A program made the position numbers and the translations under genes. Source: Candidatus Poribacteria bacterium (GTDB taxonomy: Bacteria > Poribacteria > WGA-4E > WGA-3G). From it: a stretch of 64,000 nt of DNA. The notes beneath the pieces were generated by a model that saw nothing but the letters and a program-made list of their open reading frames with translations, was not told where the DNA came from and made no database searches. Where the stretch lies: the NCBI GenBank assembly GCA_965205025.1, contig CBDBFU010000012.1, positions 213,015-277,014 on the forward strand. Direction: 5' to 3'. Below, piece after piece: positions 2,451 through 42,283 of the stretch. Position 1 is the first letter of the stretch, and every line of letters begins with the position of its first letter.

Positions 2451-4364
2451 ATGACTGTAAGAGCCATACTCATCGGTTTAGCACTTGTCATCTTACAAAC
2501 GGCAATCACACCATATAATGACTACTACCTTCAAGGGACAGATATCTCAGGAAATCATTTCCCTTTAGGTGCGGTATTCACCCTCATATTCCTTACCTTA
2601 TTTATCAATCCCATCCTAAAGAAAGTTCTACCCCGAGCAATGTTAAATCCCAGAGAATTAATTGTAATTTGGGTGATGATGGTAGTTAGTTCAGCAATTC
2701 CTTCTAAAGGAATGATAGGTTTCTTGCTCCCCTATTTAGCCGCACCAGTCTATTTTGCAACCCCAGAAAATGAGTGGGCAGAGACGCTTCATTCTCACTT
2801 CCCTGAATGGTTAATAGTATGGGATAAACAAGCTGTTACGAATTTCTATGAGGGCGAATCCTCTGTGCCGTGGATACCTTGGATGAAGCCAATCCTTGTC
2901 TGGTCTGCTTTCATACTCTTATTCTATTGTGTCACAATCTGCGTTTCGATTGTCATACGAAAACAGTGGGTAGAACGCGAAAGGTATGTATTCCCACTCG
3001 TATCTATCCCTGTAGAGATGGTTCAACAAACATCTGGAAATATAAAGCTAAATGGTTTCTTTAGGAAACGTCTTATCTGGATAGGTTTCGGTATCGCAGC
3101 AGCATTCCATCTACTTAATGGATTGCACGAATACTTCCCTGCTATACCGTCTATTCCAAATAGATACGATTTATATACACCATTCACTGAACGTCCCTGG
3201 ATTGTGATGAGATGGTGGCCGCAATTCAGGTTCTTTTTATATTTCTCGGTAATAGGAATAACCTACTTTCTGGCAACAGAAATCTCCTTTAGTTGTTGGT
3301 TCTTCTTTCTCTTCTTTAAGTTACAATATATCATCATAAACGCATTTGCAATTCCCATCAGTCCTTGGATCAGTGCCAGAGGACAAACCATGGCTGCCTA
3401 TGTAATAATGGTTATCGCCTTTCTCATAAACAGTCGCGCACATATCAAAGATATAATACTGAAGTCTTTCCAACCTTCAAATTCTACTTCAATGATTGAT
3501 GATTCTGATGAAGTGCTCTCCTATAGAAGTGCATTCTTTGGTGGAATCATCAGTTTTCTACTACTAACTGCTTTATGTGTTTATGCTGGCATGTCGTTTT
3601 GGGTTGCCTGTAGTATCATCATACTCTTTTTAATTGCATCCACAGCACTGTCTTGGATGGTAGTAAACGGTGGAATGCTACTAATACAGGCACCAATGTA
3701 TCCTGTAGAATATTTTGAGATAATTACTGGTTCAAGAATCATAAATGCCAGTAGTTTAGCACTATTGGGTTTTCAAAGAGTTATGATGCGGGATTGGGGA
3801 GGTATATTGATGCCGAGTGTATTGCACGGGTTCAAAGCATCTGATCCAGTAGGGCTAAAACGAAAGAGTCTGTTCTTTGTAATGGCAATATCTATGGTTG
3901 TCGCAATCGGGGTTTCCTATGTGGCATCACTCCCATTGATATACGAAAAAGGAGGGTTAAATTTACAGCACGGTCCTTTTGTTGGTGCTCCGCGATACTT
4001 TAATCATATGGTTTCTCTAATTCAATATCCAAAAGATCCAAAAATGGGAGAAGCATATAGCATGTTATTAGGGGCGGGAATTACATCTTTTTTATTGATA
4101 ATGCAACGCCAATTTATGTGGTGGCAAATACACCCAATTGGGTATGTCATGGGTGCTGTTTATTCCTCCTATTTTCTGTGGTCATGTATGTTCGTCGGTT
4201 GGCTATTGAAGTACTTAATACTCAAAACAGGAGGAATCGGATACTATAGAAGACTCCGACCCGTATTCATGGGATTAATTATTGGAGAGTTTGGGATTAT
4301 TGGAGCATGGATGGTTCTGGGGATATTTACTGGTGTTAATTACCATAATGCACTACCGGGATAA
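2451..4364 (+). CDS. Polytopic integral membrane protein of unknown function (>12 predicted TM segments)
   Basis: ATG start, 637 aa. Long hydrophobic stretches run throughout (e.g. 'ILIGLALVILQTAI', 'VFTLIFLTLFINPIL', 'FFFLFFKLQYIIINAFAIPI'). No catalytic motif recognised. It lies directly downstream of the sulfatase gene. Confidence 0.6.
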   Translation: MTVRAILIGLALVILQTAITPYNDYYLQGTDISGNHFPLGAVFTLIFLTLFINPILKKVLPRAMLNPRELIVIWVMMVVSSAIPSKGMIGFLLPYLAAPVYFATPENEWAETLHSHFPEWLIVWDKQAVTNFYEGESSVPWIPWMKPILVWSAFILLFYCVTICVSIVIRKQWVERERYVFPLVSIPVEMVQQTSGNIKLNGFFRKRLIWIGFGIAAAFHLLNGLHEYFPAIPSIPNRYDLYTPFTERPWIVMRWWPQFRFFLYFSVIGITYFLATEISFSCWFFFLFFKLQYIIINAFAIPISPWISARGQTMAAYVIMVIAFLINSRAHIKDIILKSFQPSNSTSMIDDSDEVLSYRSAFFGGIISFLLLTALCVYAGMSFWVACSIIILFLIASTALSWMVVNGGMLLIQAPMYPVEYFEIITGSRIINASSLALLGFQRVMMRDWGGILMPSVLHGFKASDPVGLKRKSLFFVMAISMVVAIGVSYVASLPLIYEKGGLNLQHGPFVGAPRYFNHMVSLIQYPKDPKMGEAYSMLLGAGITSFLLIMQRQFMWWQIHPIGYVMGAVYSSYFLWSCMFVGWLLKYLILKTGGIGYYRRLRPVFMGLIIGEFGIIGAWMVLGIFTGVNYHNALPG

Positions 4365-4521
4365 TGCTACCTGGTATTCGACTTCTACCTTGGAATGATG
4401 TCTTTTCACGGTGTTTCTGTAGTGTGACTCAATGAATTGGTATATATGATAGAGATCATGTTATAATTCTCTAAATTACCATTACAGAATTATAATCACA
4501 TATCACAATTTGGATAGAAAA

Positions 4522-5181
4522 ATGTCAGCTCAAAATGCATCCAATACTGAAAAACTTACTCTAAAATACTTGGAAGTAGAAGAGATCACAATTACTGGTT
4601 CAGAGAATATACCTGATACAGCATTTCGTGCTGCCAAGCAGATTATATTAAAGATAACTTCTAAACATCCAGATATCCTTAACTATCTATCAGGATATGA
4701 ATGCATTCTTGTTGCACCGGAGGAGTGTGTACAGGCATCTGTAAGATGGAAAGAAGGACACTTCAAATCATCGGCAGGTTTGGCAATTGGACCGCGAAAC
4801 GATTTGGGGTTCCCCGGACGGTTAGCTGCTTCTATCGTATGGCGGAAAAAACCAAGTATGCGCGTATTTATTCACGAATTTGGACACGCAATCGGTTTTG
4901 TCATATCACAGATTGATACGCAGTATGAGCTATTATTACAACGAGCTTATAATAAAGCAATAGAATTGGGATTATGGCAAGATGAACCTTTTATTAAGAG
5001 AATAGGAAGACCGGGTCATGATCCTGTCGCTGAGTATTGGGCAGAAGGTGTTCGTAGGTGGTATTCATACGGTAAGGGACACAAATTCAAATCCAGAGAG
5101 GAATTTAAAAAATATGATCCAGGACTAACCCATTTGTTAACTCGTTGGATATCCAACGAGGAGATTCCTCTAACTTACTAA
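4522..5181 (+). CDS. Hypothetical protein with an HExxH zinc-metallopeptidase-like motif
   Basis: The ORF-track start at 4510 is TTG. The first ATG, at 4522, gives 'MSAQNAS...'. Contains 'FIHEFGHAIGF' (HExxH). No signal peptide is obvious. Confidence 0.45.
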   Translation: MSAQNASNTEKLTLKYLEVEEITITGSENIPDTAFRAAKQIILKITSKHPDILNYLSGYECILVAPEECVQASVRWKEGHFKSSAGLAIGPRNDLGFPGRLAASIVWRKKPSMRVFIHEFGHAIGFVISQIDTQYELLLQRAYNKAIELGLWQDEPFIKRIGRPGHDPVAEYWAEGVRRWYSYGKGHKFKSREEFKKYDPGLTHLLTRWISNEEIPLTY

Positions 5182-5398
5182 TATAGAATTTGTCAATTCG
5201 ATGTTTACAGGTGGGTGTGTAAAGTAATTGTCACTTTACTTAACACCAATGATATCTCAATTTCAATTCATCCAGTCTGAATTTCGAGAATTACAGATTA
5301 TTCTTCACTACTATAATTTTCGACAATTCTATTTCAAGGGGTAACTGAGAATCTAATGATAAGTCTATTTTTTGGAGTTTCTATATCAAAAATACCGT

Positions 5399-6816: not shown

Positions 6817-7518
6817 ATGATGGGAGATGACATAATGCAAAAGACAATACAGGCAGTGCCGTCAATTTTCTATCCTGAATCAGATGGGAAACCTATGGCA
6901 GAAACTGAAGTTCATCGGGACTTGATGATTGATTTTATACAGATGCTTAAACATCATTACAGAGATCGTGAGGATGTCTGTATTTCTGGCAATATGTTTA
7001 TGTACTATGAAGAAGGTGACGCAACGAAGTCTGTAGCACCAGATGTTTTCGTTGCTTTTAGTGTCGCGAAAAAGCAACGTAGGACATACTTGACTTGGGA
7101 GGAAGGACGTACACCTGATTTTGTGTTAGAGGTAGCAAGTCCAAGTACTTTTAAAGATGACATGAGAAAAAAGAAAGAACTCTACGCTTCTGTGCTTGAG
7201 GTGAAGGAGTATTTCATCTATGACCCACTTGGGGAAATCGTACCCAGTTTCATTGGATTTCGTTTGGATGAAGGTGTTTATGAAGAGATCGATTTTCTAA
7301 ATGACCGGTTACCATCGTCTGTATTAGGTTTGGAGTTAGGAGAACGGGAAGGTATATTAAAATTATATAATCCGACTACATCCGAATGGTTACAAACAAT
7401 GCCAGAAAGAGCAGAAACCGCTGAAGTTAGAGCAGAAACCGCTGAAGTTAGAGCAGAAACCGCTGAAGCTGAATTAGAAAAAGCTTTAGAAGAAATTGAA
7501 CGTCTTCGTGGAAAATAG
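6817..7518 (+). CDS. Uma2-family (DUF820) putative restriction-endonuclease-like protein with a C-terminal heptad-repeat tail
   Basis: N-terminal region 'ESDGKPMAETEVHRDLMIDFIQML...PDVFVAF...EEGRTPDFVLEVASPST' is typical of Uma2/DUF820. The C-terminus carries 'RAETAEV' x3, encoded by a 21-bp tandem repeat, followed by a coiled-coil-like 'ELEKALEEIERLRGK'. The ORF-track start at 6814 is TTG; ATG codons lie at 6817 and 6835. Confidence 0.7.
   Translation: MMGDDIMQKTIQAVPSIFYPESDGKPMAETEVHRDLMIDFIQMLKHHYRDREDVCISGNMFMYYEEGDATKSVAPDVFVAFSVAKKQRRTYLTWEEGRTPDFVLEVASPSTFKDDMRKKKELYASVLEVKEYFIYDPLGEIVPSFIGFRLDEGVYEEIDFLNDRLPSSVLGLELGEREGILKLYNPTTSEWLQTMPERAETAEVRAETAEVRAETAEAELEKALEEIERLRGK
7408..7470 (+). 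repeat. Perfect 21-bp tandem repeat x3 (agagcagaaaccgctgaagtt) inside the 3' end of the Uma2-like gene
   Basis: Read directly from the sequence. It encodes RAETAEV x3. The third unit has one substitution (gtt to gct). Confidence 0.9.
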
Positions 7519-7643
7519 CAAATAATGAAACTAACGATGTATTCGCTAAAATCAGTAATTATATATCAATTCTATGGAAACACTTGCAAGGTTTTCTGTA
7601 GCAACGATATACTGAATTATATCATAACAAGTTAATTGTTCGA

Positions 7644-9338
7644 CTACACTCGCATTACAACAGGTAGGACTAAAGGACTCCGTCGCATCTGTTCGGTGAA
7701 AAATCTACGGAGAGCCGTTCGAATTTCATCCTGAATTGTTTCTGTTTCGTGCTTCTGTTCATCACTGAGATTTTCGATAACTCTCCGCGTGATTTCTTTC
7801 GCTTCTTCCACAAGTTCTTCAGATTCATCCATATATACAAAACCACGAGAAACTATTTCTGGTTCGGTTGCTATCGCACCACCATCACTATGCATGACAA
7901 TAATCGGTATAACCATACCATCTTGGGAAAGCTGAATTCTATCCCGTAATACGATATCTTCAAGTCCAATCTCCGGTTTCCCATCCACCAATACTCTCCC
8001 TGATCGTCCCTCACGTTCATATACTTCACATGAATTAGCGGTGAGTTGTATGAGTTCACCGTCTTCTGCAACCCTAATATTATCTGCTGGTATCCCAACA
8101 GATTCAGCGAGTTCGGCATGTCGGATTAAATTTTGGTATTCACCGTGAATTGGGATGAAGAATTCTGGTTGTAGCAGATTTAACATCAGTTTAAGATCTT
8201 CAGATGCCCCATGACCAGAAACATGCACATTTGCATTCTTTTCATGGAAAATATTAGCTCCGCGTCTAAGTAGATGATTAATTACATTTCCAATGGATCT
8301 CTCATTTCCCGGAATCTGTCGGGCTGATATGACAACAGTGTCATTTGGTTCAATCTTCAAGAATGGATGATTGTCAAGGGCTAATAATGCTAATGCTGAT
8401 CTCGGTTCACCTTGACTACCAGTAGTAAATACCACGACCTCATCTGGTTTGAACATTGTCGCTTCACGCGCATCAATCAGAAAGTCCGGATTCATATCAA
8501 GATAACCAAGATCCATTGCAGTGCGGATATTATTGGTAAGAGAACGACCCGTAACAGCAACAAGACGCCGATGCTTTTCTGCCAAATCAACAAATTGTTG
8601 GATTCTGTGAAGACTTGAGGAGAAGGTGCAGAGAAATAATTGTTGTTCAGTATTTTGAAAGATATTGTCTACAGCATCGTAAATGCTTCGTTCGGATGGA
8701 GTTTGACCAGGCCAGTTCGCATTTGTGCTATCTGAAAGCAGAAGGAGGACACCGTCACCACCTAAACGTGCAAGGGTTTGAATATCGGATAGTTTGCCAT
8801 CCACTGGTGTTGTGTCAAATTTGAAGTCTCCTGTATGGACAATTATACCGGCAGGAGTGTGAAGTGCTATTGCTACGGCATCTGGTATACTGTGCGTAAC
8901 ATAAATGAATTCAGCCGAAAAATCTCCTAATTCTACCTGATCACCCGGTTCAATTACATTCAATTGTGCTTCTGCCAAAACACCATATTCTTTTAACCGA
9001 CCTGTTGCTATTGAAAGTGTTAACTGTGTGCCGTAAACAGGAGCATTAATCTGTTGTAGGACATACGCTAAAGCACCAATGTGATCCTCATGACCATGTG
9101 TTAGAAGGATTCCACGAACTTTTTCTTGTCTTTCAACCAGATAATGGATATCTGGGAAAATCAGATCAACACCGGGCATGTCTGAACTGGGTAACATGAA
9201 ACCTGTGTCAATGACAAGGATGTCATTTTCGGTTTCATAGACCATCATGTTTAACCCGAATTCTCCTAATCCTCCTAATGGAATTATCGATATATTATGG
9301 TTAGATATGTTATCACTCCTATAAAATGTATTTGTCAT
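7644..9338 (-). CDS. rnj: Ribonuclease J (metallo-beta-lactamase / beta-CASP RNase)
   Basis: The 'LLTHGHEDHIGALAYVL' metallo-beta-lactamase motif sits near the N-terminus of a 564-aa protein, with beta-CASP-like downstream motifs. ATG start confirmed on the minus strand. Confidence 0.85.
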   Translation of the reverse strand: MTNTFYRSDNISNHNISIIPLGGLGEFGLNMMVYETENDILVIDTGFMLPSSDMPGVDLIFPDIHYLVERQEKVRGILLTHGHEDHIGALAYVLQQINAPVYGTQLTLSIATGRLKEYGVLAEAQLNVIEPGDQVELGDFSAEFIYVTHSIPDAVAIALHTPAGIIVHTGDFKFDTTPVDGKLSDIQTLARLGGDGVLLLLSDSTNANWPGQTPSERSIYDAVDNIFQNTEQQLFLCTFSSSLHRIQQFVDLAEKHRRLVAVTGRSLTNNIRTAMDLGYLDMNPDFLIDAREATMFKPDEVVVFTTGSQGEPRSALALLALDNHPFLKIEPNDTVVISARQIPGNERSIGNVINHLLRRGANIFHEKNANVHVSGHGASEDLKLMLNLLQPEFFIPIHGEYQNLIRHAELAESVGIPADNIRVAEDGELIQLTANSCEVYEREGRSGRVLVDGKPEIGLEDIVLRDRIQLSQDGMVIPIIVMHSDGGAIATEPEIVSRGFVYMDESEELVEEAKEITRRVIENLSDEQKHETETIQDEIRTALRRFFTEQMRRSPLVLPVVMRV

Positions 9339-10497: not shown

Positions 10498-13053
10498 TTA
10501 AACAACGATATTAACCAAATTATTCTTTGACACAACTATTACTTTTCTGATCGTCTTCCCTTCAATAAACTTTTGTATTTTTTCATCGGCAACTGCGGCT
10601 TCTTCTTTCTGTTCGTCGGTTGCTTCCGCAGGGAGTTGTAGACGGCTCCGAAGTTTTCCGTTTACTTGCACAACTATAGTGATGGTAGCTGTTTCAAGAA
10701 TACTTTCGTCGTATTCTGGCCATGTAGTATGTGCTATAAATCCTGATTCACCGAGACGATGCCACAATTCTTGGGTGATATGAGGAGCATAGGGCGCAAG
10801 TAAACGCAGGAAGATTTTAACTGTCTCTGTAGATAGTGATTTTTCTTGAGTTGCAGCATTGACGAATATCATCATTTGGCTAATTGCCGTATTCATCTTA
10901 TCTACCGATTCGGTATCTACAGTAACTTGTTTGATGGTTTTATGGAGTTCTCTCCAAAGCTCAGAGTCATCTGAACCTGGGCGGTCGGTCAACTTTTTGC
11001 TGAGTTCACCATTCTGTTCATCAACTACCAATCTCCAAGTACGTTGTAGGAATCGATAAACCCCCTCAACGCCAGCATCCTGCCACGGTGTACTTGCGGT
11101 AACAGGTCCAATAAACAATAGGTATAGACGAAGGGCATCAGCTCCATACTTATCAATAACATCATTTGGATTAATGACATTGAACCGGGACTTTGACATC
11201 TTCTCTAATTGAACATTGAGAGATGTACCAGATGTCTTTACTACAGTTTCATCCCCGTTTCGTTCGACTTCATGCGGATAATAGTATTTACCTGCATCAT
11301 CTTGAAAGGATTCTGCCAAAATCGTACCTTGGTTAAGAAGTCCTTGGAAAGGTTCTTTTGTGGATACCATCCCTGAATCATATAATACTTTGTGCCAAAA
11401 ACGTGCATATAGTAGATGAAGTACGGCGTGTTCCGCTCCACCCATATAAAGGTCTACTGGCATCCAGTACTGTTCAAGAGCGGTATCAAATGGAACATCC
11501 GTATTGTGAGCATCCAAAAATCTGAGATAATACCAACATGAACCTGCCCATTGTGGCATTATGTTTGTTTCTCGTGTGGCAATTTGACCATCAGGAAGTT
11601 TAACTTTTAACCACGTTTCATCCGCACGAGCAAGCGGTGGTTTCCCATCTTCAGTAGGCTTATACGCATCAATTGGTGGAAGTTCCACAGGCAAATGATT
11701 ATCTGGAAGTGGTACGATTGTACCATCCTCAAGATGCGCAAGAGGGAACGGTTCACCCCAATAGCGTTGACGCGAAAAAAGCCAGTCTCGAAGACGGTAT
11801 TGTATCTGTCCTTCCCCCTTCTTCTCTGCTTCAAGCCATGCAATCATCCTTTTCTTTGCATCATCTACACGTAACCCGTTGAGAAAATCGGAGTTTACAC
11901 AAACACCGTCTTCTTCAAACGGCTCCTCTTCAATAGGTTTTTCACCACCACTGATAACCTCTATTATAGGAATCCCAAAGGTTGTTGCGAATTCATGGTC
12001 TCGTTCATCATGCCCCGGAACAGCCATGATGGCACCAGTACCATACGTCATAAGGACATAGTCCGCTACCCAGATAGGGACAGGTTGGTTGTTGCATGGG
12101 TTAATGGCATAAGCACCTGTGAAGACACCGGTTTTTTCAGTAGCAAGGTCTGTCCGTTGCAGATCAGATTTATTTGAGGCTTCTTGAACATAATCGTAAA
12201 CTGAGGAAACCGCATCAGGGTGTGTTATTTGAGATACAAGTGGATGTTCCGGTGCTAAAACACAATAGGTTGCACCGAAGAGTGTATCTGGACGGGTTGT
12301 GAAAACCGTGAACGTATCATTTCTATCTTTTATACGGAAAGTTATTTCTGCCCCTTCAGATTTGCCAATCCAATGTCTCTGCATCTCTTTGAGACCATCA
12401 GGCCACTCCAATTGATCTAAGTCGTTCAACAGACGTTCTGCATAGGCAGTGATTTTCAGCATCCATTGATGCATTAACCGTCTTTCAACGGGGTCACCTG
12501 TATCAACGTATTTTCCATCTTTTACTTCTTCATTTGAAAGTACTGTACCTAATGCTGGACACCAATTGACAGGGACATCAGCAAGATATGCCAAGTCTTT
12601 TTTATACAGTTGGAGAAAGATCCATTGTGTCCATCTGTAATATTCTGGTATTGAGGTGTCGATTTTCCGAGACCAATCGTAGGAAAGGCCGATACGTTGA
12701 ATCTGCTGTTGAAATGTCTGAGTATTCCGTTTGGTAATACGTGCCGGATGTTCATTTTCGCGTACCGCTGTCCGTTCTGTAGGGAGTCCGAAAGCATCCC
12801 AACCCATCGGGTGCATGACATTATATCCCTGCATGCGTTTAAAATTTGCCAGAACATCGGTCGGTACGTAGTTTTTAGTATGCCCCATGTGTAATCCAGC
12901 ACCAGAAGTATAAGGAAACATTCCGAGTACATAGTATTTCGGTTTTTTCGATAATATCTCAATATCGTTTGGAATTTTAAATGCTTCTTTTTCTTTCCAT
13001 TCTGATTGCCAATACGGTTCTATTTCCCCAGGGGCATAACTATCTGTCTCCAT
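10498..13053 (-). CDS. leuS: Leucyl-tRNA synthetase
   Basis: 851 aa. Class-I 'HMGH' (HIGH-type) motif in 'SGAGLHMGHTKNY' and a 'KMSKS' motif in 'LEKMSKSRFNVINP'. ATG start, TAA stop. Confidence 0.92.
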   Translation of the reverse strand: METDSYAPGEIEPYWQSEWKEKEAFKIPNDIEILSKKPKYYVLGMFPYTSGAGLHMGHTKNYVPTDVLANFKRMQGYNVMHPMGWDAFGLPTERTAVRENEHPARITKRNTQTFQQQIQRIGLSYDWSRKIDTSIPEYYRWTQWIFLQLYKKDLAYLADVPVNWCPALGTVLSNEEVKDGKYVDTGDPVERRLMHQWMLKITAYAERLLNDLDQLEWPDGLKEMQRHWIGKSEGAEITFRIKDRNDTFTVFTTRPDTLFGATYCVLAPEHPLVSQITHPDAVSSVYDYVQEASNKSDLQRTDLATEKTGVFTGAYAINPCNNQPVPIWVADYVLMTYGTGAIMAVPGHDERDHEFATTFGIPIIEVISGGEKPIEEEPFEEDGVCVNSDFLNGLRVDDAKKRMIAWLEAEKKGEGQIQYRLRDWLFSRQRYWGEPFPLAHLEDGTIVPLPDNHLPVELPPIDAYKPTEDGKPPLARADETWLKVKLPDGQIATRETNIMPQWAGSCWYYLRFLDAHNTDVPFDTALEQYWMPVDLYMGGAEHAVLHLLYARFWHKVLYDSGMVSTKEPFQGLLNQGTILAESFQDDAGKYYYPHEVERNGDETVVKTSGTSLNVQLEKMSKSRFNVINPNDVIDKYGADALRLYLLFIGPVTASTPWQDAGVEGVYRFLQRTWRLVVDEQNGELSKKLTDRPGSDDSELWRELHKTIKQVTVDTESVDKMNTAISQMMIFVNAATQEKSLSTETVKIFLRLLAPYAPHITQELWHRLGESGFIAHTTWPEYDESILETATITIVVQVNGKLRSRLQLPAEATDEQKEEAAVADEKIQKFIEGKTIRKVIVVSKNNLVNIVV

Positions 13054-13240: not shown

Positions 13241-14701
13241 TTGGAGAAGCAAACATTGAAGTTTAATTTATCTCGTCGAGAATTTATACGATACGGATCA
13301 ATTGCAACTGCCTCTGCTGCTGTAGGTTTTGGGTTTACAGGTGTAAGTCGAAAATTAATTAAACATGTTCCAGGTTTCAAACCTGAACCTCCTTACGTTT
13401 TTGTTCCAAGTCCTAATCAACTTATTGAATTGCCAGAAGGTTTTTCAGTTCATGCTTTTTCAAGAACAGGTGAAAAGATGGACGATGGACTCTGGGTTCC
13501 CGGTAAGCATGATGGAATGGCTGCATTTCCTGGTCCAAACGGAAAAACCATTCTTATTCGAAATCATGAGTTAACTGCTGCAGATAAGATTGTCGGTCCT
13601 TTTGGTTGGAATAACGAAAAACTCAATCTTGTTGACACTAATAAAATCTACGATATGGGTTCAAAAGAAGCACCTTGCCTCGGAGGAACAACAACGCTCA
13701 TTTATGATACACGTACAGGTACATTAGACAATCATTTCCTAAGTCTTGTAGGAACAATCCGGAATTGTGCTGGTGGACTAACGCCTTGGAACACATGGCT
13801 GTCTTGTGAGGAAGCTGTACAAAAGACAGAGAATACCTTTGAACAAGACCACGGATATAACTTTGAAGTCCCAGTTACCACAACTCATGGATTAGTAAAT
13901 GCAACACCTTTAAAGGCGATGGGGCGTTTTAATCATGAAGCAGTCGCTGTTGATGAAAAAACGGGTATTGTCTATCAAACCGAAGATAGAAACGATGGGT
14001 TATTTTATCGATATATACCAGATAAACCAGGAGAACTCATAAAAGGTGGACGACTCCAGGCTTTGAAAATACGAGATAAGAAGGCAGCCGATACCCGCAA
14101 TTGGAAAACCACACTAAATAAGTATGTACCGTGGACTTATAACCCGTATCCTGTGTTACAGGAACTTTCTGTCGAATGGGTAGATATTGAAAATGTAGAA
14201 TCACCCGATGACGATCTCCGTAAGCAAGGTGTTGAAGGGAAGGACGCTGCAGTTTTTGCCCGAGGTGAAGGTATATGGTATAGTGGTGACGCACTATATT
14301 TTACCTGCACAAATGGAGGGGTTGAACTGAAGGGACAAATATGGAAATATATACCCAGTCCTTACGAAGGTACAAGCCGGGAACAGAAAAAACCTGGAAT
14401 ACTTCAGCTATTTATTGAACCGAATGACAGCAATCTTCTTGAAAATGCTGACAATATTGCAGTTGCTCCATGGGGAGATCTAATTATTTGTGAAGATGGA
14501 CCAGGAGAACAGTACATTGTAGGTGTAACACCAGAAGGAAAAACCTATCAATTTGCAAAGAATGTATCTAACACCTCTGAGTTTGCTGGCTCTGTTTTCT
14601 CACCCGATGGTACAACAATGTTTGTCAATATCCAGACTCCAGGAATAACCCTTGCCATTACCGGTCCTTGGGGTGAAATTCGGCAACGACAGTTAGCATA
14701 A
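13241..14701 (+). CDS. Tat-signal secreted DUF839/PhoX-like protein (putative phosphatase)
   Basis: Twin-arginine motif 'SRREFIRYGSIATASAAV'. The C-terminal 'TTMFVNIQTPGITLAITGPWG' resembles the PhoX/DUF839 C-terminus. The ORF-track start is TTG (13241). Another TTG at 13256 is better spaced from a GGAG Shine-Dalgarno-like motif. There is no nearby ATG. Confidence 0.55.
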   Translation: MEKQTLKFNLSRREFIRYGSIATASAAVGFGFTGVSRKLIKHVPGFKPEPPYVFVPSPNQLIELPEGFSVHAFSRTGEKMDDGLWVPGKHDGMAAFPGPNGKTILIRNHELTAADKIVGPFGWNNEKLNLVDTNKIYDMGSKEAPCLGGTTTLIYDTRTGTLDNHFLSLVGTIRNCAGGLTPWNTWLSCEEAVQKTENTFEQDHGYNFEVPVTTTHGLVNATPLKAMGRFNHEAVAVDEKTGIVYQTEDRNDGLFYRYIPDKPGELIKGGRLQALKIRDKKAADTRNWKTTLNKYVPWTYNPYPVLQELSVEWVDIENVESPDDDLRKQGVEGKDAAVFARGEGIWYSGDALYFTCTNGGVELKGQIWKYIPSPYEGTSREQKKPGILQLFIEPNDSNLLENADNIAVAPWGDLIICEDGPGEQYIVGVTPEGKTYQFAKNVSNTSEFAGSVFSPDGTTMFVNIQTPGITLAITGPWGEIRQRQLA

Positions 14702-14805
14702 GAACTTCCCACCTTTCGTCATGTATGATAAATCGGAAGAGATCATACATCTACTTTGAATAACACCTTTGTTATTACTATTTTGGTTTATAAAGTGCCA
14801 ACGGT

Positions 14806-14832
14806 TTTAAGACAAAAATGTCTTATTTTTTA
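14806..14832 (+). terminator. Hairpin plus T-run downstream of the PhoX-like gene
   Basis: 'ttaagacaaaaatgtcttatttttta': 7-bp stem taagaca/tgtctta followed by a T-run. Confidence 0.5.
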
Positions 14833-14955
14833 TATTAGTGTAATCAATGATAAGCTTGTTTTTACTCAAAATAGTGAAAATTAGGTTTTTTACCATACTT
14901 CCAGAAACTGTCTAAGGAAATATATCAACTAATAACTGATTGCAGGGAGATAAAA

Positions 14956-15318
14956 ATGAACGTAAATTGGCAAAGACTAAATAATACTTGGCACATATTC
15001 TGTGAGGATACGATAAATATCATCCCTCATGGTTCTGAAGGTGTCTATGTAATTTTTACAAATTATAATAACATCCCCATAGCTAATTATGTTGGTAAAG
15101 GACACATCAAAGAAAGACTTAAAGAATATACTTTGTTTCATCCAATGAGAGAACGCAGGATGAACACAGGTTCATTATATGTAACATGGACATATATAAC
15201 TGATGAGAATGAACAACGTAATGCCGAAGCGTATCTTATACAGAAACTTTACCCAATAGAAAATAAACAACGTCCATTTCCAATGAATCCATATTTTACC
15301 ATGAATCTTCCTTGGTGA
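14956..15318 (+). CDS. Small GIY-YIG-like domain protein (120 aa)
   Basis: 'GVYVIFTNYNNIPIANYVGKGHIKERLKEY' fits the GIY-(x10-11)-YIG...R spacing of GIY-YIG nucleases. ATG start. Lies in a very AT-rich stretch. Confidence 0.45.
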   Translation: MNVNWQRLNNTWHIFCEDTINIIPHGSEGVYVIFTNYNNIPIANYVGKGHIKERLKEYTLFHPMRERRMNTGSLYVTWTYITDENEQRNAEAYLIQKLYPIENKQRPFPMNPYFTMNLPW

Positions 15319-15346
15319 TAAGAACAAGCGGTGAAAACTATAAGAT

Positions 15347-16315
15347 ATGCCTTATAAAGAAAGTCCTTACTTTTGCACCCCTTCACGAGATGCCATAATC
15401 TGGCGATACATGTCTATAGACAAATTTATGTTAATACTGAATAGTCAAACACTTTATTTTCCTAATATTTACAAATTCAATGACAAAAGTGAAGGAACAT
15501 TATCAGATAAATCTTTAGAGGAAGTTTATAAGACAAACTTATTTAATGAAGAGAATACACCCATAAAACAAGATGAAGCGTTCATTAAGCAGAAAGAATA
15601 TATAGAACAATCAGCGGAATTACAGACAAAAGAACAATTAGAAGAAAAAATAATGACACTACACTCATTTGCAACATTGCTAAAAGACTTTTCGAACCAT
15701 TTCATGTTTTGTAGCTGTTGGTTTAGAAAAGAACATGAAAGTTTTATAATGTGGGGAGAATATGGTGATAAAAGACACCCATCATCCATAGCCCTTCAAA
15801 CGACTATTGGAGATCTCATTGATAGTTTTGTTGAATATGATGAAGATTATGATGTTCACATAGGTAAGGTAAAATATAAAGATTATCGTGAAGAACATAT
15901 TGAGGGCTACGAGAACTTTGAACAAGAGAACTTAAACAATCCTGATAATGTACTTAAATTATTTTATGCTCCAATTCTACACAAGAAAAAGGTATTTAAT
16001 GACGAACATGAAGTCAGGGCAACTATTTCATTCAAATCTATTTGCAAACATCACTTAGAAGTTCAAGTTGATACATCAAACATACCATTTTACAGCGATA
16101 GAATGTTCACACCAGACTCCAGATACTTCAGTTCAGATACGACTAACTTAATGGATGACGTGCCCTCTGACGGTATCCCAATTAGAATTAACATAAGCAA
16201 ATTAATCAAGACTGTTGCAATATCTAAAATTGGATGGGAATATTTTCAAAAACCATTGGTAGAATTGTTAAAAAACAATAATTTATCTCCAGAAATCGTT
16301 ATTTCTGATATATAG
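15347..16315 (+). CDS. DUF2971-family protein (322 aa)
   Basis: N-terminal 'IIWRYMSIDKFMLILNSQTLYFPNIYKFNDKSEG' matches the DUF2971 hallmark (L-Y-F-s-x-P-x-x-F-N-D-x-x-E). A later 'CWFRKEHESFIMWGEYGD' block also matches. ATG start. Confidence 0.5.
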   Translation: MPYKESPYFCTPSRDAIIWRYMSIDKFMLILNSQTLYFPNIYKFNDKSEGTLSDKSLEEVYKTNLFNEENTPIKQDEAFIKQKEYIEQSAELQTKEQLEEKIMTLHSFATLLKDFSNHFMFCSCWFRKEHESFIMWGEYGDKRHPSSIALQTTIGDLIDSFVEYDEDYDVHIGKVKYKDYREEHIEGYENFEQENLNNPDNVLKLFYAPILHKKKVFNDEHEVRATISFKSICKHHLEVQVDTSNIPFYSDRMFTPDSRYFSSDTTNLMDDVPSDGIPIRINISKLIKTVAISKIGWEYFQKPLVELLKNNNLSPEIVISDI

Positions 16316-16495
16316 TTGATTATTCTGTTGATAAATATATTTGTGTCATTGTTCCACGATGTGGCGTATTTATCAAACCATGAATAATAGTATGAAAATG
16401 CTGAAAGTTGTTATACTTGAAGAGCGATCTATAATCTGATAACAAGTTGTCAAAGCGGAGAAGAGGATTCATTGCAATTAGGAGTCGTAAACACT

Positions 16496-19400
16496 ATGAA
16501 AAAACATCTGTCTCGGTTTATCCTTATTTCCACTGCTCTTTTATTTTATATCACCCAAAACGTTGCAGCACAGCAGAATCTTACACAAGATGTATATGCA
16601 ATCATAGAGCAATCCTGCCTGATATGTCACGGTGAAAACGGTTCCTATAGAGAATCACTGATCATTGAACACAAAGCACTCATTGAGAATGGAAAAATTA
16701 TCCCCGGCGATCCAGAAAGTTCTGTGTTCTATCAACGACTCATCGAAACGGATGTTGCTACAAGGATGCCGCTCGGACAACCACCACTAACCTCTGCAGC
16801 GATAGAAACAATACGCCAATGGATTGCTGCGGGTGCACCCGATTGGAATACCCCTGTCAGAGCAAATACAGACTTCATCACCCCTCAAGCCATGCTTGAG
16901 ACAATTGAGGCACATGTCCAATCCATTCCACCTTTTGACCGCACCTTTGCACGTTACTTTACATCAACCCATCTCTACAACGCAGGTGAATCGGATGAAG
17001 CATTAAAAGCCTATCAACGTGCCCTCTCTAAACTTGTCAATAGCCTCTCTTGGGGACGCGAAATCGTCAAACCGAAAGCAATTGATCCTATAGGAACTAT
17101 CTTCTACATTGATCTGCGAGACTATCAATGGGAGGTCGGCACTAACCGATGGACACAGATTGAAAGAATCTATCCCTACACGGATGAATACAACGCACCT
17201 TCTGAGACATCGCTCCATGAAAAACTGACAAGTTTGCAAGAAGAACTGAACTGCCAGGTGCCGTTTATTCATGTAGATTGGTTCGTCGCAAACGCCTCCT
17301 TGCCACCCCTCTATCACGATATTTTGCAGCTGCCACTGACAGAACGAGAACTTGAAGAAAAACTTGAGGTATCAGTTAAAGAAAATATTCAGAACGCCCC
17401 TGGGAAACGTGTCTGGCGCGCGGGTTTTAACGATTCTGGGGTCTCAAACCACAACAGAGTTGTAGAACGACACACTTTTCAACACGGTGCATACTGGAAA
17501 AGCTACGATTTTGCTGGGAGTGTTGGTACACAGAACATCTTCACGCATCCAATCTCTTTTGAACACGACGGCAGCGAAATCATTTTCAACCTACCGAACG
17601 GACTGCAAGCATACTACCTTGCAAATCAAAATGGAAACCGACTGAATGTAGCACCCACAGACATCGTCTCAAACCCTGCAGTAAGTGACCCAGCAGTCCG
17701 AAATGGACTATCCTGTATCGGATGTCATACCGAAGGAATGAAACAATTTGAAGATGAAGTCCGGAACGTCGTCGAACAGAACGCAAACCCACCCTACGAC
17801 AAAGCACGTGCACTCAGCCTTTATGTGGAAAAAGCCACAATGGATGCACTCCTCGCACAGGATACAGAACGTTACCGACAAGCTCTTCAAAAAACTGGCG
17901 ACGTGTTCGGCGGAATTGAACCCATTCAACGGTTCCATGAAGTCTTTCAAGGACCTATTGATTCAATACATGCCGCCGCATCTCTCGGACTACAAACCGA
18001 GATACTTATAAAAAATATCCAGCAGAATGTCGGACTACAAAACTTAGGATTGTTGGTTCTGGAGAACGGCACCATCAAACGGGATACATGGACACAACAA
18101 TGGACCGACATCGTTCATGCATTGGATTTCCCACAAGAAAGCATAGTAACACCCGTTGAACCGATCCCCGAACGCATTCCTGGAACTATAGTTAATATCC
18201 CTAACCCAACCCTGCGTACTGCAATTGAAGAAGCACTTGGAAAACCCTCCGGTACACCAATTACAGTGGATGACATGGCAATACTGACAACCCTTCATGG
18301 AGGTGGACAACCACCTCAAGATTTAGAGGGAATACAGTTCGCAACAAATCTCGAAAAATTATCTTTCTCACACGGTATAAATGATCTATCACCACTGGCA
18401 AGATTGACAAATTTGAAATATTTATCAATTTCTGGCTATCCTTTAGACCTGTCCCCACTGGCAGGATTGACAAATTTGGAGTATTTAAACATTGGTGGTC
18501 AAGACTTCGGTGTAACATCCGATACAGGACAGCTTAACAATGTTGGTTTTGATATATCGGCTTTAGCTGGATTAACAAAATTACATACGCTAAGACTTTT
18601 GGGTAAGAGAGTATACGACATATCACCTTTAGTTGGATTAACAGAATTACAGTGGCTAGATCTTGGGAATCTAAATCCTGGGGGTAACCGAATATCCGAC
18701 ATCTCACCTTTAGCTGGATTAACAGAATTACAGAGGCTAAATCTTACAGGTAACCCAATATCCGACATCTCACCCCTTTCAGGGTTGATTAATTTGGAAC
18801 GACTGTATCTCGGTGAGATGCACCACGAGGTTGTAGGGGGCGGGAATAATTTCAGTACCGCGCAAGGAGTACTATCTGATATATCGCCTTTAGTAGGGTT
18901 AACAAAATTACAGTCGTTATCCCTTAATAATAACAAAATATCCGACATTTCATCCCTCTCATCGTTGATTAATTTGGAACGACTGGATCTGCGCTTCAAC
19001 AACATATCCGAGGTTTCACCTCTCGCAAACTTGCAGAAATTGAGTGGCACATTAAATCTACTCGGCAACAACATATCCGAGGTTTCACCTCTCGCAAACT
19101 TGGAGAATTTATTAGCGTTACAACTACAGTTTAACAAAATATCCAACATATCCCCTTTGGATGGATTACCAGAGAAAACAAGAGTCTTTTGGTATGGTAA
19201 CCCGGGGTTCCCGAAAGGTGGTCCCAAAATAGAAGGACCATGGCTATGGGTACTGCTCCGCAACCTTCATGTTCCTCACGATGTTTTTATCCTGGAGGGG
19301 CGAAATGCTGTTTTCTGGGGGCGAAATGTTGTTTCATGGCGAAATTATGATTATTATGATTATCTTTCAGAAGCGAGTGACGGTAGTGTTACAGAACAAA

Positions 19401-20908
19401 CAATCGCAGCCGATGGCGCGACTGAGGGGAACTCCGTCGGGGAACACGTATGGACCTCACATAAAATCAATCCTACTAACACTGATAAATTTGGTGATAA
19501 AGGCAACATCTGGGAGATGTTAAGCACTATTGGAATTAAATGTCTGAACTGTTCTGGTAATGTCATTTATGGTTTGACCTATTTGTATTCACCGCGTGAA
19601 CAAAAGACGAACATGTTTGCAGGAAGTAGTGCTGGTCACAAGGTTTGGCTCAATGGAGAGTTAGTTCGAAACTGGCACGTTAGGAATAGGATATATGACC
19701 TTTATACCGATTATGAAGATGCTTTCCCCGTTACGTTGAAACAAGGTCAGAATGTCTTATTAGTTGCGGTTAATCATGGCTACGGAAATACTGGTAGGTG
19801 GCGTTTTAGTGGTGATTTTGGATTTGCCCCTGGCACAGAATACACCACATATATTCCGGGTGTGGAATATAGTCTATCTGATCCTACAATCTATGTCGGA
19901 GATACCTTCACACTTGACATCCGTGCTGAAGATGTTCACGATTTAGCGGATTGGCAATTTGATATTTCCTTTAATCCCAACGTACTTGAAGTCCTTGAAG
20001 TCAACGAGGGGGATTTCATGAAACAAAATGGAGGAAGCACCTATTTTCAGAAAGGAATAATTGATAACGCTGCTGGCAAAATCGAAGGACTCAGTTCAGC
20101 GATATTGACAGACACAGGAGTCAACGGCACGGGAGTACTACTCTCCGTGACTTTCAAAGCAAAAACTGAAGTTGAAACCCAAGTAGCACTCCATAACTTC
20201 CAACTATTAACAATCTTAGAAGAGACAATCCCTGCCGGTCCCCATAAGTTTATCTTCGCTATAACCCCAAAAAAGAAACCACTCACCGGGGATGTGAATA
20301 GGGACGGACAAGTGAACATTCGGGATATGATCCTTGTTTCACGATCCTTTGGAAAGGATGCATCCGACAACCCCGAGGCTGATGTAAATCAGGACGGCAC
20401 CATTAACATACAAGACCTAATCCTTGTTGCACAGCATTTAGGCGAAACAACTGACAACTCTGCTGCACCGACTATACTTGCCAAAGAGACAGAGCAGCTC
20501 ACACCGGCAATTATACAGAACTGGATAAAACAAGCACAGATTGAAGATGATGGTTCACTTGCTTTCCAGCAAGGAATAGAGTATCTACAACAGTTATTAG
20601 CGTCGTTGCTACCAGAAAAAACGATACTCCTACCGAACTACCCAAATCCATTCAACCCAGAGACGTGGATACCATATCAGTTAGCAACCCCTGCTGATGT
20701 CAGCATCTCTATTTATGCTGCGGACGGACAGGTTGTCCGAACACTACAATTGGGCAATTTGCCAGCAGGACACTATACAAGCCGAAGTCGGGCGGCACAT
20801 TGGGATGGCAAAAATAAAATAGGAGAATCGGTTGCAAGTGGTCTCTATTACTATACCCTTTCAGCAGATGAGTTTTCTGCCACACGAAGGATGTTGATAC
20901 TGAAGTAA
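16496..20908 (+). CDS. Giant secreted multidomain surface protein: cytochrome-c-like CxxCH N-domain, leucine-rich repeats, cohesin-like and dockerin-like modules, T9SS-type C-terminal sorting domain
   Basis: The ORF-track start at 16472 is TTG. ATG at 16496 gives 'MKKHLSRFILISTALLFYITQNVAAQQ' (signal peptide). 'CLICHGENGS' is a CxxCH heme-binding motif. There are about 15 LRRs ('ISDISPLAGLTELQRLNLTGNPISDISPL'). Dockerin-like pairs 'GDVNRDGQVNIRDMILV' and 'ADVNQDGTINIQDLILV'. C-terminal 'LLPNYPNPFNPETWIPYQL...SISIYAADGQVVRTLQLGNLPAGHYTSRSRAAHWDGKNKIGESVASGLYYYTLSADEFSATRRMLILK' is a classic Por/T9SS CTD. Confidence 0.8.
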   Translation: MKKHLSRFILISTALLFYITQNVAAQQNLTQDVYAIIEQSCLICHGENGSYRESLIIEHKALIENGKIIPGDPESSVFYQRLIETDVATRMPLGQPPLTSAAIETIRQWIAAGAPDWNTPVRANTDFITPQAMLETIEAHVQSIPPFDRTFARYFTSTHLYNAGESDEALKAYQRALSKLVNSLSWGREIVKPKAIDPIGTIFYIDLRDYQWEVGTNRWTQIERIYPYTDEYNAPSETSLHEKLTSLQEELNCQVPFIHVDWFVANASLPPLYHDILQLPLTERELEEKLEVSVKENIQNAPGKRVWRAGFNDSGVSNHNRVVERHTFQHGAYWKSYDFAGSVGTQNIFTHPISFEHDGSEIIFNLPNGLQAYYLANQNGNRLNVAPTDIVSNPAVSDPAVRNGLSCIGCHTEGMKQFEDEVRNVVEQNANPPYDKARALSLYVEKATMDALLAQDTERYRQALQKTGDVFGGIEPIQRFHEVFQGPIDSIHAAASLGLQTEILIKNIQQNVGLQNLGLLVLENGTIKRDTWTQQWTDIVHALDFPQESIVTPVEPIPERIPGTIVNIPNPTLRTAIEEALGKPSGTPITVDDMAILTTLHGGGQPPQDLEGIQFATNLEKLSFSHGINDLSPLARLTNLKYLSISGYPLDLSPLAGLTNLEYLNIGGQDFGVTSDTGQLNNVGFDISALAGLTKLHTLRLLGKRVYDISPLVGLTELQWLDLGNLNPGGNRISDISPLAGLTELQRLNLTGNPISDISPLSGLINLERLYLGEMHHEVVGGGNNFSTAQGVLSDISPLVGLTKLQSLSLNNNKISDISSLSSLINLERLDLRFNNISEVSPLANLQKLSGTLNLLGNNISEVSPLANLENLLALQLQFNKISNISPLDGLPEKTRVFWYGNPGFPKGGPKIEGPWLWVLLRNLHVPHDVFILEGRNAVFWGRNVVSWRNYDYYDYLSEASDGSVTEQTIAADGATEGNSVGEHVWTSHKINPTNTDKFGDKGNIWEMLSTIGIKCLNCSGNVIYGLTYLYSPREQKTNMFAGSSAGHKVWLNGELVRNWHVRNRIYDLYTDYEDAFPVTLKQGQNVLLVAVNHGYGNTGRWRFSGDFGFAPGTEYTTYIPGVEYSLSDPTIYVGDTFTLDIRAEDVHDLADWQFDISFNPNVLEVLEVNEGDFMKQNGGSTYFQKGIIDNAAGKIEGLSSAILTDTGVNGTGVLLSVTFKAKTEVETQVALHNFQLLTILEETIPAGPHKFIFAITPKKKPLTGDVNRDGQVNIRDMILVSRSFGKDASDNPEADVNQDGTINIQDLILVAQHLGETTDNSAAPTILAKETEQLTPAIIQNWIKQAQIEDDGSLAFQQGIEYLQQLLASLLPEKTILLPNYPNPFNPETWIPYQLATPADVSISIYAADGQVVRTLQLGNLPAGHYTSRSRAAHWDGKNKIGESVASGLYYYTLSADEFSATRRMLILK
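18330..19150 (+). repeat. Near-identical nucleotide-level repeats encoding the LRR array inside the giant surface-protein gene
   Basis: 'aacaacatatccgaggtttcacctctcgcaaacttg' recurs at about 19000 and 19060. 'atatccgacatctcaccttt' recurs several times. These repeats generate the spurious antisense ORF 18499..19263. Confidence 0.8.
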
Positions 20909-41526: not shown

Positions 41527-42283
41527 AAAATAAAATGAAGAAAACAAAAACTTCTAACAACAAATATACATACATCACAACAACCTAAAGTAAATTAAAA
41601 ATATATGTCAAAATAAACTGGAGAATAGGATTATCTATGTTAGAATTACAACTAAAAACATCAGAAATCTTAACAATTGAGAATCATTCACAAATCATAT
41701 ATATTCGTAGCCTAATAAAACAGGTACAGTGGATTATCAAAGTCAGTTTCACCACATATTTTTTTAGTTTTTCAAATTTTAAAATTTTACACCTATTAAT
41801 CAAATCCTTTGTTATCCCAATCCCTAACAGGGTTTACAGCGAATTAAAAAGTCATTTTTTTAAAAGCGACTCAAAAAACTTGAAAAACTTGAAAAACTCA
41901 AAAAACTTGAAAATAGACCTATTTCAAACAATGCACACTATCATATACATCAGTAAACTACAGTGTATCTCATTACTACGAAGCGTCTATACAGATAGAA
42001 TTTTCTTCGTAGTGGCAGGATTTCCCTGTCCATTGGTTCAAAATATTGCAAATGGTAAAACCAATGAATCCTCCAAATCTATGATTTATGAGATATGTTC
42101 TAATGCCTTGTCAAAATCAAAGGATAAGATATTTCACATTCAAACAATTCCAAATCAATGGATCAAAAGAAAAGTAAAAGACACAAAATTCATCCACAAT
42201 TTATATTTGGTGCAAATTCTTGTAACCTTAAAAAAGTGGCTCTAAACCCAGTGTACTACTGACGAGAAAGAGGTTTTACCAAT
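41527..42283 (+). repeat. ~760-bp repeated element, copy 1; contains a 9-bp iteron-like tandem array (aaaaacttg)x4 and a copy of the 'TTCGTAG..' motif; carries a low-complexity ORF (41637..42245)
   Basis: It shares these blocks with 63221..64000: 'aaaataaaatgaagaaaaca..cttctaacaac', 'ttttaaaattttacacc.att.atcaaatcctttgttatcccaatccc.aacagggtttacagc', the (aaaaacttg)n array, and 'caaattcttgtaaccttaaaaaagtg.ctctaaacccagtgta.tactgacg.gaaa.aggttttaccaa'. Confidence 0.8.

Follow-up and report, generated by a model that had tools for sequence, protein, structure and literature searches.

We analysed a stretch of 64,000 nucleotides (nt) of the Candidatus Poribacteria contig CBDBFU010000012.1 (positions 213,015–277,014), referred to below as the window. 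Two adjacent genes, here called A and B, lie in it between the gene of a PhoX phosphatase and that of a giant surface protein (Table 1). Both had been noticed in a first-pass annotation as open reading frames (ORFs) of 120 and 322 amino acids (aa), and both are real. Gene A encodes a GIY-YIG protein, and gene B a protein of the DUF2971 superfamily related to the ADP-ribosyltransferase (ART) DarT. The pair is most likely a two-gene variant of the defence type represented by Aristaios and PDC-S31, undescribed in the literature that we searched. Homologous loci are denoted below by L numbers, and individual proteins by P numbers.

Gene A, a minimal GIY-YIG domain

The GIY-YIG motif claimed for A is present, although the Pfam score remains below the gathering cutoff (PF01541, E-value 0.15, 12.8 bits vs. 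22.6). A has 16 homologous clusters at 62–93% identity, and GVY31, Y45VG47, R54, Y58, E91 and N103 are invariant across 17 A sequences. Among the 45 members of the A family, 28 match GIY_YIG_2 and 24 match GIY-YIG (E≤0.1), and one relative of the A2 type described below exceeds the PF20815 cutoff (23.3 vs. 22.4). The best PDB match of the family profile is the GIY-YIG domain of Thermotoga UvrC. By itself the E-value of 0.45 is not significant, but the alignment is in register, and the invariant residues of A align with Y19, Y29, R39, Y43, E76 and N88 of UvrC. These six UvrC residues are reportedly catalytic. In NCBIfam, only the GIY-YIG part of Cho aligns with A (model positions 27–109 of 289, 15 bits vs. 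the cutoff of 367), and the E-value, 0.011, is again not significant alone.

The fold of A is of the GIY-YIG type, a three-stranded antiparallel sheet flanked by helices (β-β-α-α-β-α). There is a short N-terminal extension, residues 104–120 form a short unstructured tail, and the protein ends after the domain. The comparison values listed for A are 9.4 for UvrC (26% identity), 9.2 for R.Eco29kI, 7.0 for T4 EndoII, 6.9 for I-TevI and 5.8 for PD-T4-3. Taken together, A is a bare, minimal and probably active UvrC-type GIY-YIG domain that has neither a DNA-binding nor a partner-binding domain. UvrC and Cho differ from it in possessing a UvrB-binding domain and, in the case of UvrC, RNase-H-like endonuclease and HhH domains, and they are encoded by core repair genes, whereas A resides in a mobile AT-rich module. 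R.Eco29kI, T4 EndoII and PD-T4-3, the latter being modification-dependent and specific for 5-hydroxymethylcytosine (9u75), demonstrate that GIY-YIG domains can be defence effectors. However, these proteins are 134–250 aa long and have DNA-recognition elements of their own, while A has 120 aa and is paired with an ART.

Gene B, a divergent DUF2971 protein

Within the DUF2971 superfamily, B is divergent. The window protein itself scores below the gathering cutoff (PF11185, 16.9 vs. 22 bits), so the assignment made in the first-pass annotation stands at the level of the family: 74 of its 77 members match DUF2971 (E≤0.1), and P0046 (25.0) and P0213 (24.4) exceed the cutoff. A search of 1.84 billion representative proteins with the family profile yielded 8,583 proteins at E≤1e-3, 4,922 at ≤1e-10 and only 34 at ≤1e-30, hence the clade of B is small and tight within a very large superfamily. 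Further relatives were found by tblastn (1e-9 to 1e-15) among plasmid genes annotated as DUF2971 in Bacillus, Acinetobacter, Ralstonia and haloarchaea, at 21–31% identity to B. A match to phrog_34615, a PHROG of unannotated function, has an E-value of 4.3e-27, and the B profile has no match among PDB sequences.

In 77 B sequences E220 is conserved at 90% or more, while E222 and R224 are invariant, the motif being situated at the start of the core strand 222–227. E220-x-E222-x-R224 agrees with the ExE motif that a 2025 survey reported for DUF2971; the survey places this family in the HYE clade of ARTs, beside DarT and AbiGi (PMC12522546). Candidate residues of the NAD+-binding motifs I and II are W19-R-Y21, Y37, S132, Y139, Y177 and Y180. 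The fold of B is the split β-sheet fold of ARTs, DarT-like, with large helical inserts, and the nearest structural neighbours of its core are DarT and Tpt1, both of which modify nucleic acids.

The resemblance to DarTG extends beyond the conserved ExE-type motif. In both cases the operon has two genes, with a small enzymatic partner possibly acting on the same lesion, and the distribution is patchy and mobile. The partners differ: DarG is a macrodomain that removes ADP-ribose, whereas the partner of B is a GIY-YIG nuclease. No macrodomain was found in any locus inspected, and the neighbours in the window are A, PhoX and the leucine-rich repeat (LRR) protein. Identity between B and DarT is 9–13%, about 185 residues of B belong to inserts and a C-terminal extension outside the DarT-like core, and B, by contrast, is acidic.

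Two single-gene systems can also be compared with B. Aristaios, encoded on a Lactococcus plasmid, is a DUF2971 protein of 316 aa, shown experimentally to be an abortive-infection-type defence and to block transcription of the phage (PMC11381338, PMC13064643). It shares with B the Pfam superfamily and a similar length, the comparison being made by description, and it works as a single gene, whereas B has a conserved GIY-YIG partner. As no Lactococcus match was obtained when 72,556 plasmids were searched by tblastn with B, any relation between the two is remote. The other system is PDC-S31. B matches its PADLOC model PDLC04993 at E=7.8e-13 (46 bits) over a part of the model, residues ~117–289, the PADLOC models used here having no curated cutoff; the relatives P0058 and P0124 match it at 4e-14 to 4e-15, and PDLC04990 and PDLC04991 recognise them as well. 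By definition PDC-S31 is a candidate system of one gene, whereas the system described here has two genes, and the PADLOC search suggested for the pair recovered B only. PDC-S31 is not known to have been tested, and it is mentioned in no paper of the literature searched.

Conservation and co-evolution of the pair

In 12 distinct genomic contexts, a mini GIY-YIG gene adjoins a B homologue. The contexts are the window (with the near-identical L017–19), the eight separate loci L001–L008, L010–15, L016 and L020–22. About 14 further contigs were judged, from their matching lengths, to be common to the lists of A and B matches. A scan of metagenomic contigs gave three loci, and a scan of species-level genomes, made with a single protein and not with an alignment, gave five, all from Poribacteria. 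All named relatives, as well as the five matches in the genome collection, come from metagenome-assembled genomes of Candidatus Poribacteria. The 28-nt spacer between A and B implies that they form one operon.

The partners fall into three subtypes. The A type accompanies B proteins of at least 68% identity, the A2 type (starting with MARIGPMN) accompanies those of ~50–60% identity, and the third type (starting with MPKITD) lies downstream of B proteins of ~45–50% identity. The catalytic set GIY/YIG/R/(Y or H)/E/N is found in all three, Y58 being replaced by H in the A2 and third types. Direct comparison of A with A2 by hhalign is weak (E=0.013, probability 3%), and their homology is deduced instead from a common fold, the register of the motifs and the place in the genome. 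In one clade (L008, L010–15) the order of the genes is swapped.

Pairwise identities of the partner and of B correlate (r=0.95). The partner diverges faster, with ~24% identity where B retains ~55%, A evolving 2–3 times faster than B; both are under purifying selection, with ω of 0.13–0.21 for B and 0.15–0.46 for A. The pairing suggested in the first-pass annotation is thus supported: A and B adjoin each other in independent contexts, co-diverge and are the only two ORFs in common, so that they form a functional pair and their adjacency is not accidental.

At the same time, B genes without a GIY-YIG gene are found in L028, L032, L033 and L029–31. The remote DUF2971 genes of plasmids (Bacillus, Acinetobacter, haloarchaea, Ralstonia) and of a phage are solo, with no GIY-YIG neighbour; for the plasmid genes this means that the pairing is clade-specific. 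When A is missing, a different small gene may lie upstream of B, such as the 140-aa gene of L033 and the HTH gene of L024, a Bacillus plasmid. Two B paralogues are encoded on one 5.9-Mb Poribacteria contig, which contains both L001 and L033. The L001 copy has an A-type partner, while the L033 copy (P0129, 48% identity) is accompanied by the 140-aa gene, which is unrelated and has no Pfam match; an A2-type gene, P0199, is situated on the same contig.

Mobility and decay

The region of the pair is conspicuously AT-rich, as originally noted. The GC content of positions 14702–16471 (1.77 kb) is 31.6%, compared to the window mean of 39.4%, which places it among the lowest 1% of 1770-bp windows, and the AT-rich run aattataataacatcc quoted in the first-pass annotation is indeed present, at about 15061. 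The same difference holds elsewhere: in ten out of ten loci tested the GC fraction of the module is 0.33–0.35, while that of the flanks is 0.39–0.49. The third-position GC fraction (GC3) of A and B is 0.26–0.28, close to that of PhoX (0.27), hence the drop in GC is due to codon positions 1 and 2 and to intergenic DNA.

Between contexts, DNA similarity spans only the two ORFs and their ribosome-binding region (window positions 14927/14946 to 16316/16318). This common unit contains neither terminal repeats nor a mobility gene, and a repeat search around the pair, made for flanking direct or inverted repeats and att sites, gave only chance-level matches of 11–16 nt. Among them is an exact 12-mer at 14440 and 16393, one copy of which lies inside PhoX. 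Judged from these comparisons, the pair is a horizontally mobile and patchily distributed module that would move without a recognisable mobility gene. Origin from a phage, also considered in the first-pass annotation, finds little to recommend it: the family alignment has no relative in 2.9 M viral contigs, and, apart from the PHROG, the phage collection yields one Acinetobacter phage gene, 26% identical to B and without a GIY-YIG neighbour.

These tight boundaries, the many chromosomal sites, the absence of an integrase or transposase and the AT-richness relative to every host would also be expected of a purely selfish element, in which A is a free-standing, self-mobilising endonuclease of the homing type and B a hitch-hiker or addiction gene of no benefit to the host. 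Yet I-TevI and the Seg enzymes are defined by a linker and a DNA-binding domain, and A, a catalytic domain of ~100 aa, has neither; unlike them, it lies outside introns and phage genomes, at many sites, and co-evolves with B. It is also closer to UvrC than to the homing enzymes (26% vs. 17% identity). The insertion sites differ (at least 12), with no single cognate homing site, and neither the purifying selection on both genes nor the long co-divergence and the swap of gene order is expected of a hitch-hiker. We therefore abandon the description of A as homing-endonuclease-like, and consider the selfish element as a whole very improbable.

The module decays frequently, and mostly in B, which is broken in L003, L018 and L006 and decayed in L034, whereas A is inactivated only in L004, where it is frameshifted next to an intact B. 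Thus B is the costly member of the pair, broken or lost in four contexts, compared to one for A. B is truncated by the same event in L018 and L003, which represent separate lineages and differ in genomic context: a CCC to CC deletion in the codon of P72 creates CCA-TAA. A run of this length does not suffice for classic phase variation, and the deletions may be due to recurrent mutation, recombination or sequencing error. In L006 (8001–9289), B is frameshifted in the ExE region, and its C-terminal part runs in frame into the A2-type gene, yielding a B::GIY-YIG fusion ORF at 8639–9286. In L034, an intact A2-type gene (7001–7342) is followed by a 45-aa remnant of B (7434–7568).

This pattern would suit a toxin–antitoxin system of the DarTG type, with B as an ADP-ribosylating toxin and A as its antidote, which would either bind B or serve as a dedicated repair nickase, a private UvrC/Cho initiating the removal of ADP-ribosylated bases from the host's DNA; such a module would be addictive or abortive, and defence might or might not result. 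A is small, usually located upstream, 28–32 nt from B, and faster-evolving; it is intact where B has decayed (L034), B being the gene inactivated in L003, L018 and L006, and other small genes fill the slot where it is missing (L033, L024). Moreover, the nearest relative of A is the incision domain of UvrC/Cho, and nucleotide excision repair is said to counteract DarT lesions. However, B is intact and retains the ExE motif without a GIY-YIG gene in the HsdS fusion of L028 and in L033, L032 and L029, and thousands of DUF2971 genes are solo; hence A is not an obligatory antidote. The frameshifted A beside an intact B in L004 points in the same direction, and the strict conservation of the catalytic residues speaks against a mere binding antitoxin. 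Nicking of single-stranded DNA at lesions in replication forks would be expected to harm the host and not to rescue it. The isoelectric point (pI) is uninformative for telling a nuclease from an antitoxin. Finally, Aristaios acts as a single, non-toxic gene (PMC11381338). On balance a toxin–antitoxin system is the main alternative to the reading preferred below, possible but rather unlikely; were A a repair-type antidote, ART toxins would have a novel type of antitoxin, one that excises the lesion instead of reversing the ADP-ribosylation.

Genomic context

Returning to defence, for which the pair was proposed as cargo from the outset, defence genes occur in roughly 7 of 17 distinct contexts (~40%). 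In L016 the pair is embedded in a type I restriction–modification (RM) operon with the order HsdM – HEC-03B/A – GIY-YIG – B – 305 aa – HsdS – HsdR. The HEC-03B (469 bits) and HEC-03A (108 bits) genes, recognised by PADLOC at 3399–5266, are immediately upstream of the pair, and the 305-aa gene between B and HsdS (7118–8035) is unannotated. In L034 the island is situated between an HsdM gene with an AAA_15/DUF3696 gene and an SLFN-pAgo gene; it also contains Uma2, and the pAgo is a 1127-aa SLFN-HATPase-Piwi protein scoring 1722 bits in PADLOC. In L004 the pair lies beside a methyltransferase with a putative endonuclease, resembling a type II RM system, and N6_N4 methylase genes are located nearby in L032 and L033. 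In L007 (1158–2854) the pair comes after two genes for DUF488 proteins and one for a dual OB (DuOB) protein. Both of these domains have been linked to conflict systems.

Counted with these contexts are two in-frame HsdS::B fusions, P0046 (527 aa, L028 7001–8584) and P0207 (639 aa). In both, a Methylase_S specificity subunit is joined to a full-length B-type transferase, with Ile substituted for the Met of B in P0207. In L028 there is no GIY-YIG gene, and HsdS looks split, with a 158-aa target recognition domain half upstream. The fusion suggests that ADP-ribosylation could be targeted to specific sequences. No paper of the literature searched mentions either such HsdS::ART fusions or the pairing of GIY-YIG with DUF2971.

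The context thus supports the assignment of the pair to defence or toxin cargo, as it bears the hallmarks: it is AT-rich throughout and patchily distributed, often includes a pseudogene, is found within type I RM loci, and has in B a match to PDC-S31 and a member of the superfamily of Aristaios. The claim that the genes have no housekeeping neighbours is, by contrast, not correct. The leucyl-tRNA synthetase (LeuRS) gene is 1.9 kb upstream, and the other genes of the window are those of an ordinary chromosome (GFO/IDH oxidoreductase, xylose-isomerase-like, NFACT, WD40, Reg_prop/SpoIIE). Genes of aminoacyl-tRNA synthetases are found in three contexts, with ThrRS (L020, 7235–9022) and AlaRS (L003, 4813–7542) adjacent and LeuRS in the window, perhaps by coincidence.

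The prevalence of housekeeping contexts leads to a further explanation, that no conflict system is involved, B being a symbiont effector or regulatory ART that modifies a sponge or bacterial protein, and A an unrelated linked nuclease or repair gene. Poribacteria are rich in eukaryote-like genes, LRR and WD40 genes are present in the window itself, B is acidic, and about 18% of DUF2971 proteins are predicted to be secreted effectors in pathogens (PMC12522546). On the other hand, no signal peptide and no secretion-system neighbours are seen at the locus, and the nearest structural neighbours of B act on nucleic acids. The linkage to GIY-YIG is retained over three diverged clades, through a swap of order and a fusion, and neither the RM-operon embedding nor the HsdS fusions are expected of an effector. 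This explanation seems to us very improbable.

Proposed function

Our preferred reading is that A and B constitute a horizontally mobile, two-gene, abortive-infection-type anti-phage module acting by "mark and cut", to which, on the comparisons above, we give a probability of about one half. Upon infection B, as an NAD+-dependent ADP-ribosyltransferase, would modify nucleic acid, most likely DNA. A, as a UvrC-derived nickase, would then incise the DNA at or near the ADP-ribose lesions, in the way the GIY-YIG domain of UvrC incises next to bulky lesions, and a block of replication or transcription would thereby be turned into strand breaks. What the analysis itself shows is the two protein folds, the conservation of catalytic residues, the adjacency, joint divergence and mobility of the genes, and their association with defence loci, whereas the enzymatic activities, the target, the trigger and the division of labour are all inferred.

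The proposal starts from DUF2971 being a DarT-like ADP-ribosyltransferase, a relationship that the first-pass annotation had not noticed. Action of B on nucleic acid is suggested by its nearest structural relatives, DarT and Tpt1, and by the HsdS fusion in sister lineages, while cutting is suggested by the strict conservation of the catalytic residues of A and by its derivation from the lesion-incision domain of UvrC. Aristaios provides the precedent that such an ART can be harmless until infection.

Several observations weigh against "mark and cut". The Pfam scores of both window proteins are below the gathering thresholds, A has no match among the PADLOC models, and the family has no relative in the viral contigs. 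More than half of the contexts, that of the window included, have only housekeeping neighbours. The family median pI of B is 5.3, which is unusual for a DNA-binding enzyme, and the substrate could be protein or RNA. Finally, a fast-evolving small partner, usually upstream and surviving the decay of B (L034), also fits an antitoxin.

A bolder version is write-and-cut immunity, in which the DarT-like enzyme would write ADP-ribose on the invading DNA, and the minimal, UvrC-derived GIY-YIG nickase, either recruited to the mark or specific for it, would cleave it. We regard this version as doubtful. If true, it would amount to ADP-ribosylation-dependent restriction, and the HsdS-fused sisters would provide sequence-targeted ADP-ribosylation of DNA.

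The components of the pair are from known families, and DUF2971 already includes a candidate (PDC-S31) and a validated (Aristaios) single-gene defence. However, the superfamily is very large, as ~8,600 clusters at 50% identity match the B profile, and Aristaios is its only tested member. The nuclease-partnered clade and the HsdS-fused sisters hint at DNA as the substrate of DUF2971 transferases, and at a possible coupling of ADP-ribose marks with cleavage or with recognition of a sequence. The pair would add a two-gene system missed by the current PADLOC models, and would document a defence module moving between core-genome sites, without a recognisable mobility gene, in an uncultured phylum of sponge symbionts.

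Features and surroundings of the locus

Coordinates are collected in Table 1.

Table 1. Features of the A–B locus and its neighbours (window coordinates)
Feature	Position	Strand	Details
LeuRS gene	10498–13053	opposite	1.9 kb upstream of the pair, beyond PhoX
PhoX phosphatase gene	13241–14701		5' neighbour of the pair; Pfam PhoX 3.5e-82
Upstream intergenic region	14702–14955	+	about 28% GC; context-specific except the last ~13–29 nt
Promoter-like hexamers	14807–14836		site count not above shuffles (13 vs. 11.0 ± 3.2)
Unit common at the DNA level	14927–16318	+	two ORFs with 13–29 nt upstream and 1–3 nt downstream; 82–87% identity (blastn of loci vs. window)
Shine-Dalgarno-like AGGGAG	14943–14948		
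Gene A	14956–15318	+	120 aa; ATG start, AGGGAG 8 nt upstream
A–B spacer	15319–15346	+	28 nt; spacing alike (29–32 nt) in L001, L005, L020
Gene B	15347–16315	+	322 aa
CCC run, codon P72	15560–15562	+	in conserved NTPIKQD; one C deleted in L018 (~6607) and L003 (~8212)
AT-rich imperfect hairpin 3' of B	16319–16388	+	−18.3 kcal/mol, z −1.68; 13/200 shuffles fold equally; terminator scan negative
LRR/cohesin/dockerin/FlgD_ig surface-protein gene	16472–20908		1478 aa; 3' neighbour of the pair

The intrinsic terminator that was thought to bound PhoX was not recovered, as the consensus scan after this gene is negative and the 9-bp AT-rich hairpin found there does not exceed shuffled sequences in stability (−10.9 kcal/mol, z −0.58). 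The hairpin downstream of B is a possible terminator, though an unconvincing one.

The only tract of the window with a GC content lower than that of the pair region is at 41.0–43.0 kb (about 30% GC). It contains an ORF of 202 aa (41637–42245), without a Pfam match, downstream of the GFO/IDH oxidoreductase gene. The ORF at 52464–56501 has the same length (1345 aa) as the gene upstream of the L020 pair and was considered as a candidate empty site; it shows no DNA similarity to L020 and was rejected.

The predicted surface protein downstream of B has a PSCyt1 (planctomycete cytochrome-c-like) N-terminus, many LRRs, cohesin and dockerin domains, and an FlgD_ig/Por_Secre_tail C-terminus. An antisense ORF of 254 aa (18499–19263) within its LRR region is probably an artefact of the repeats.

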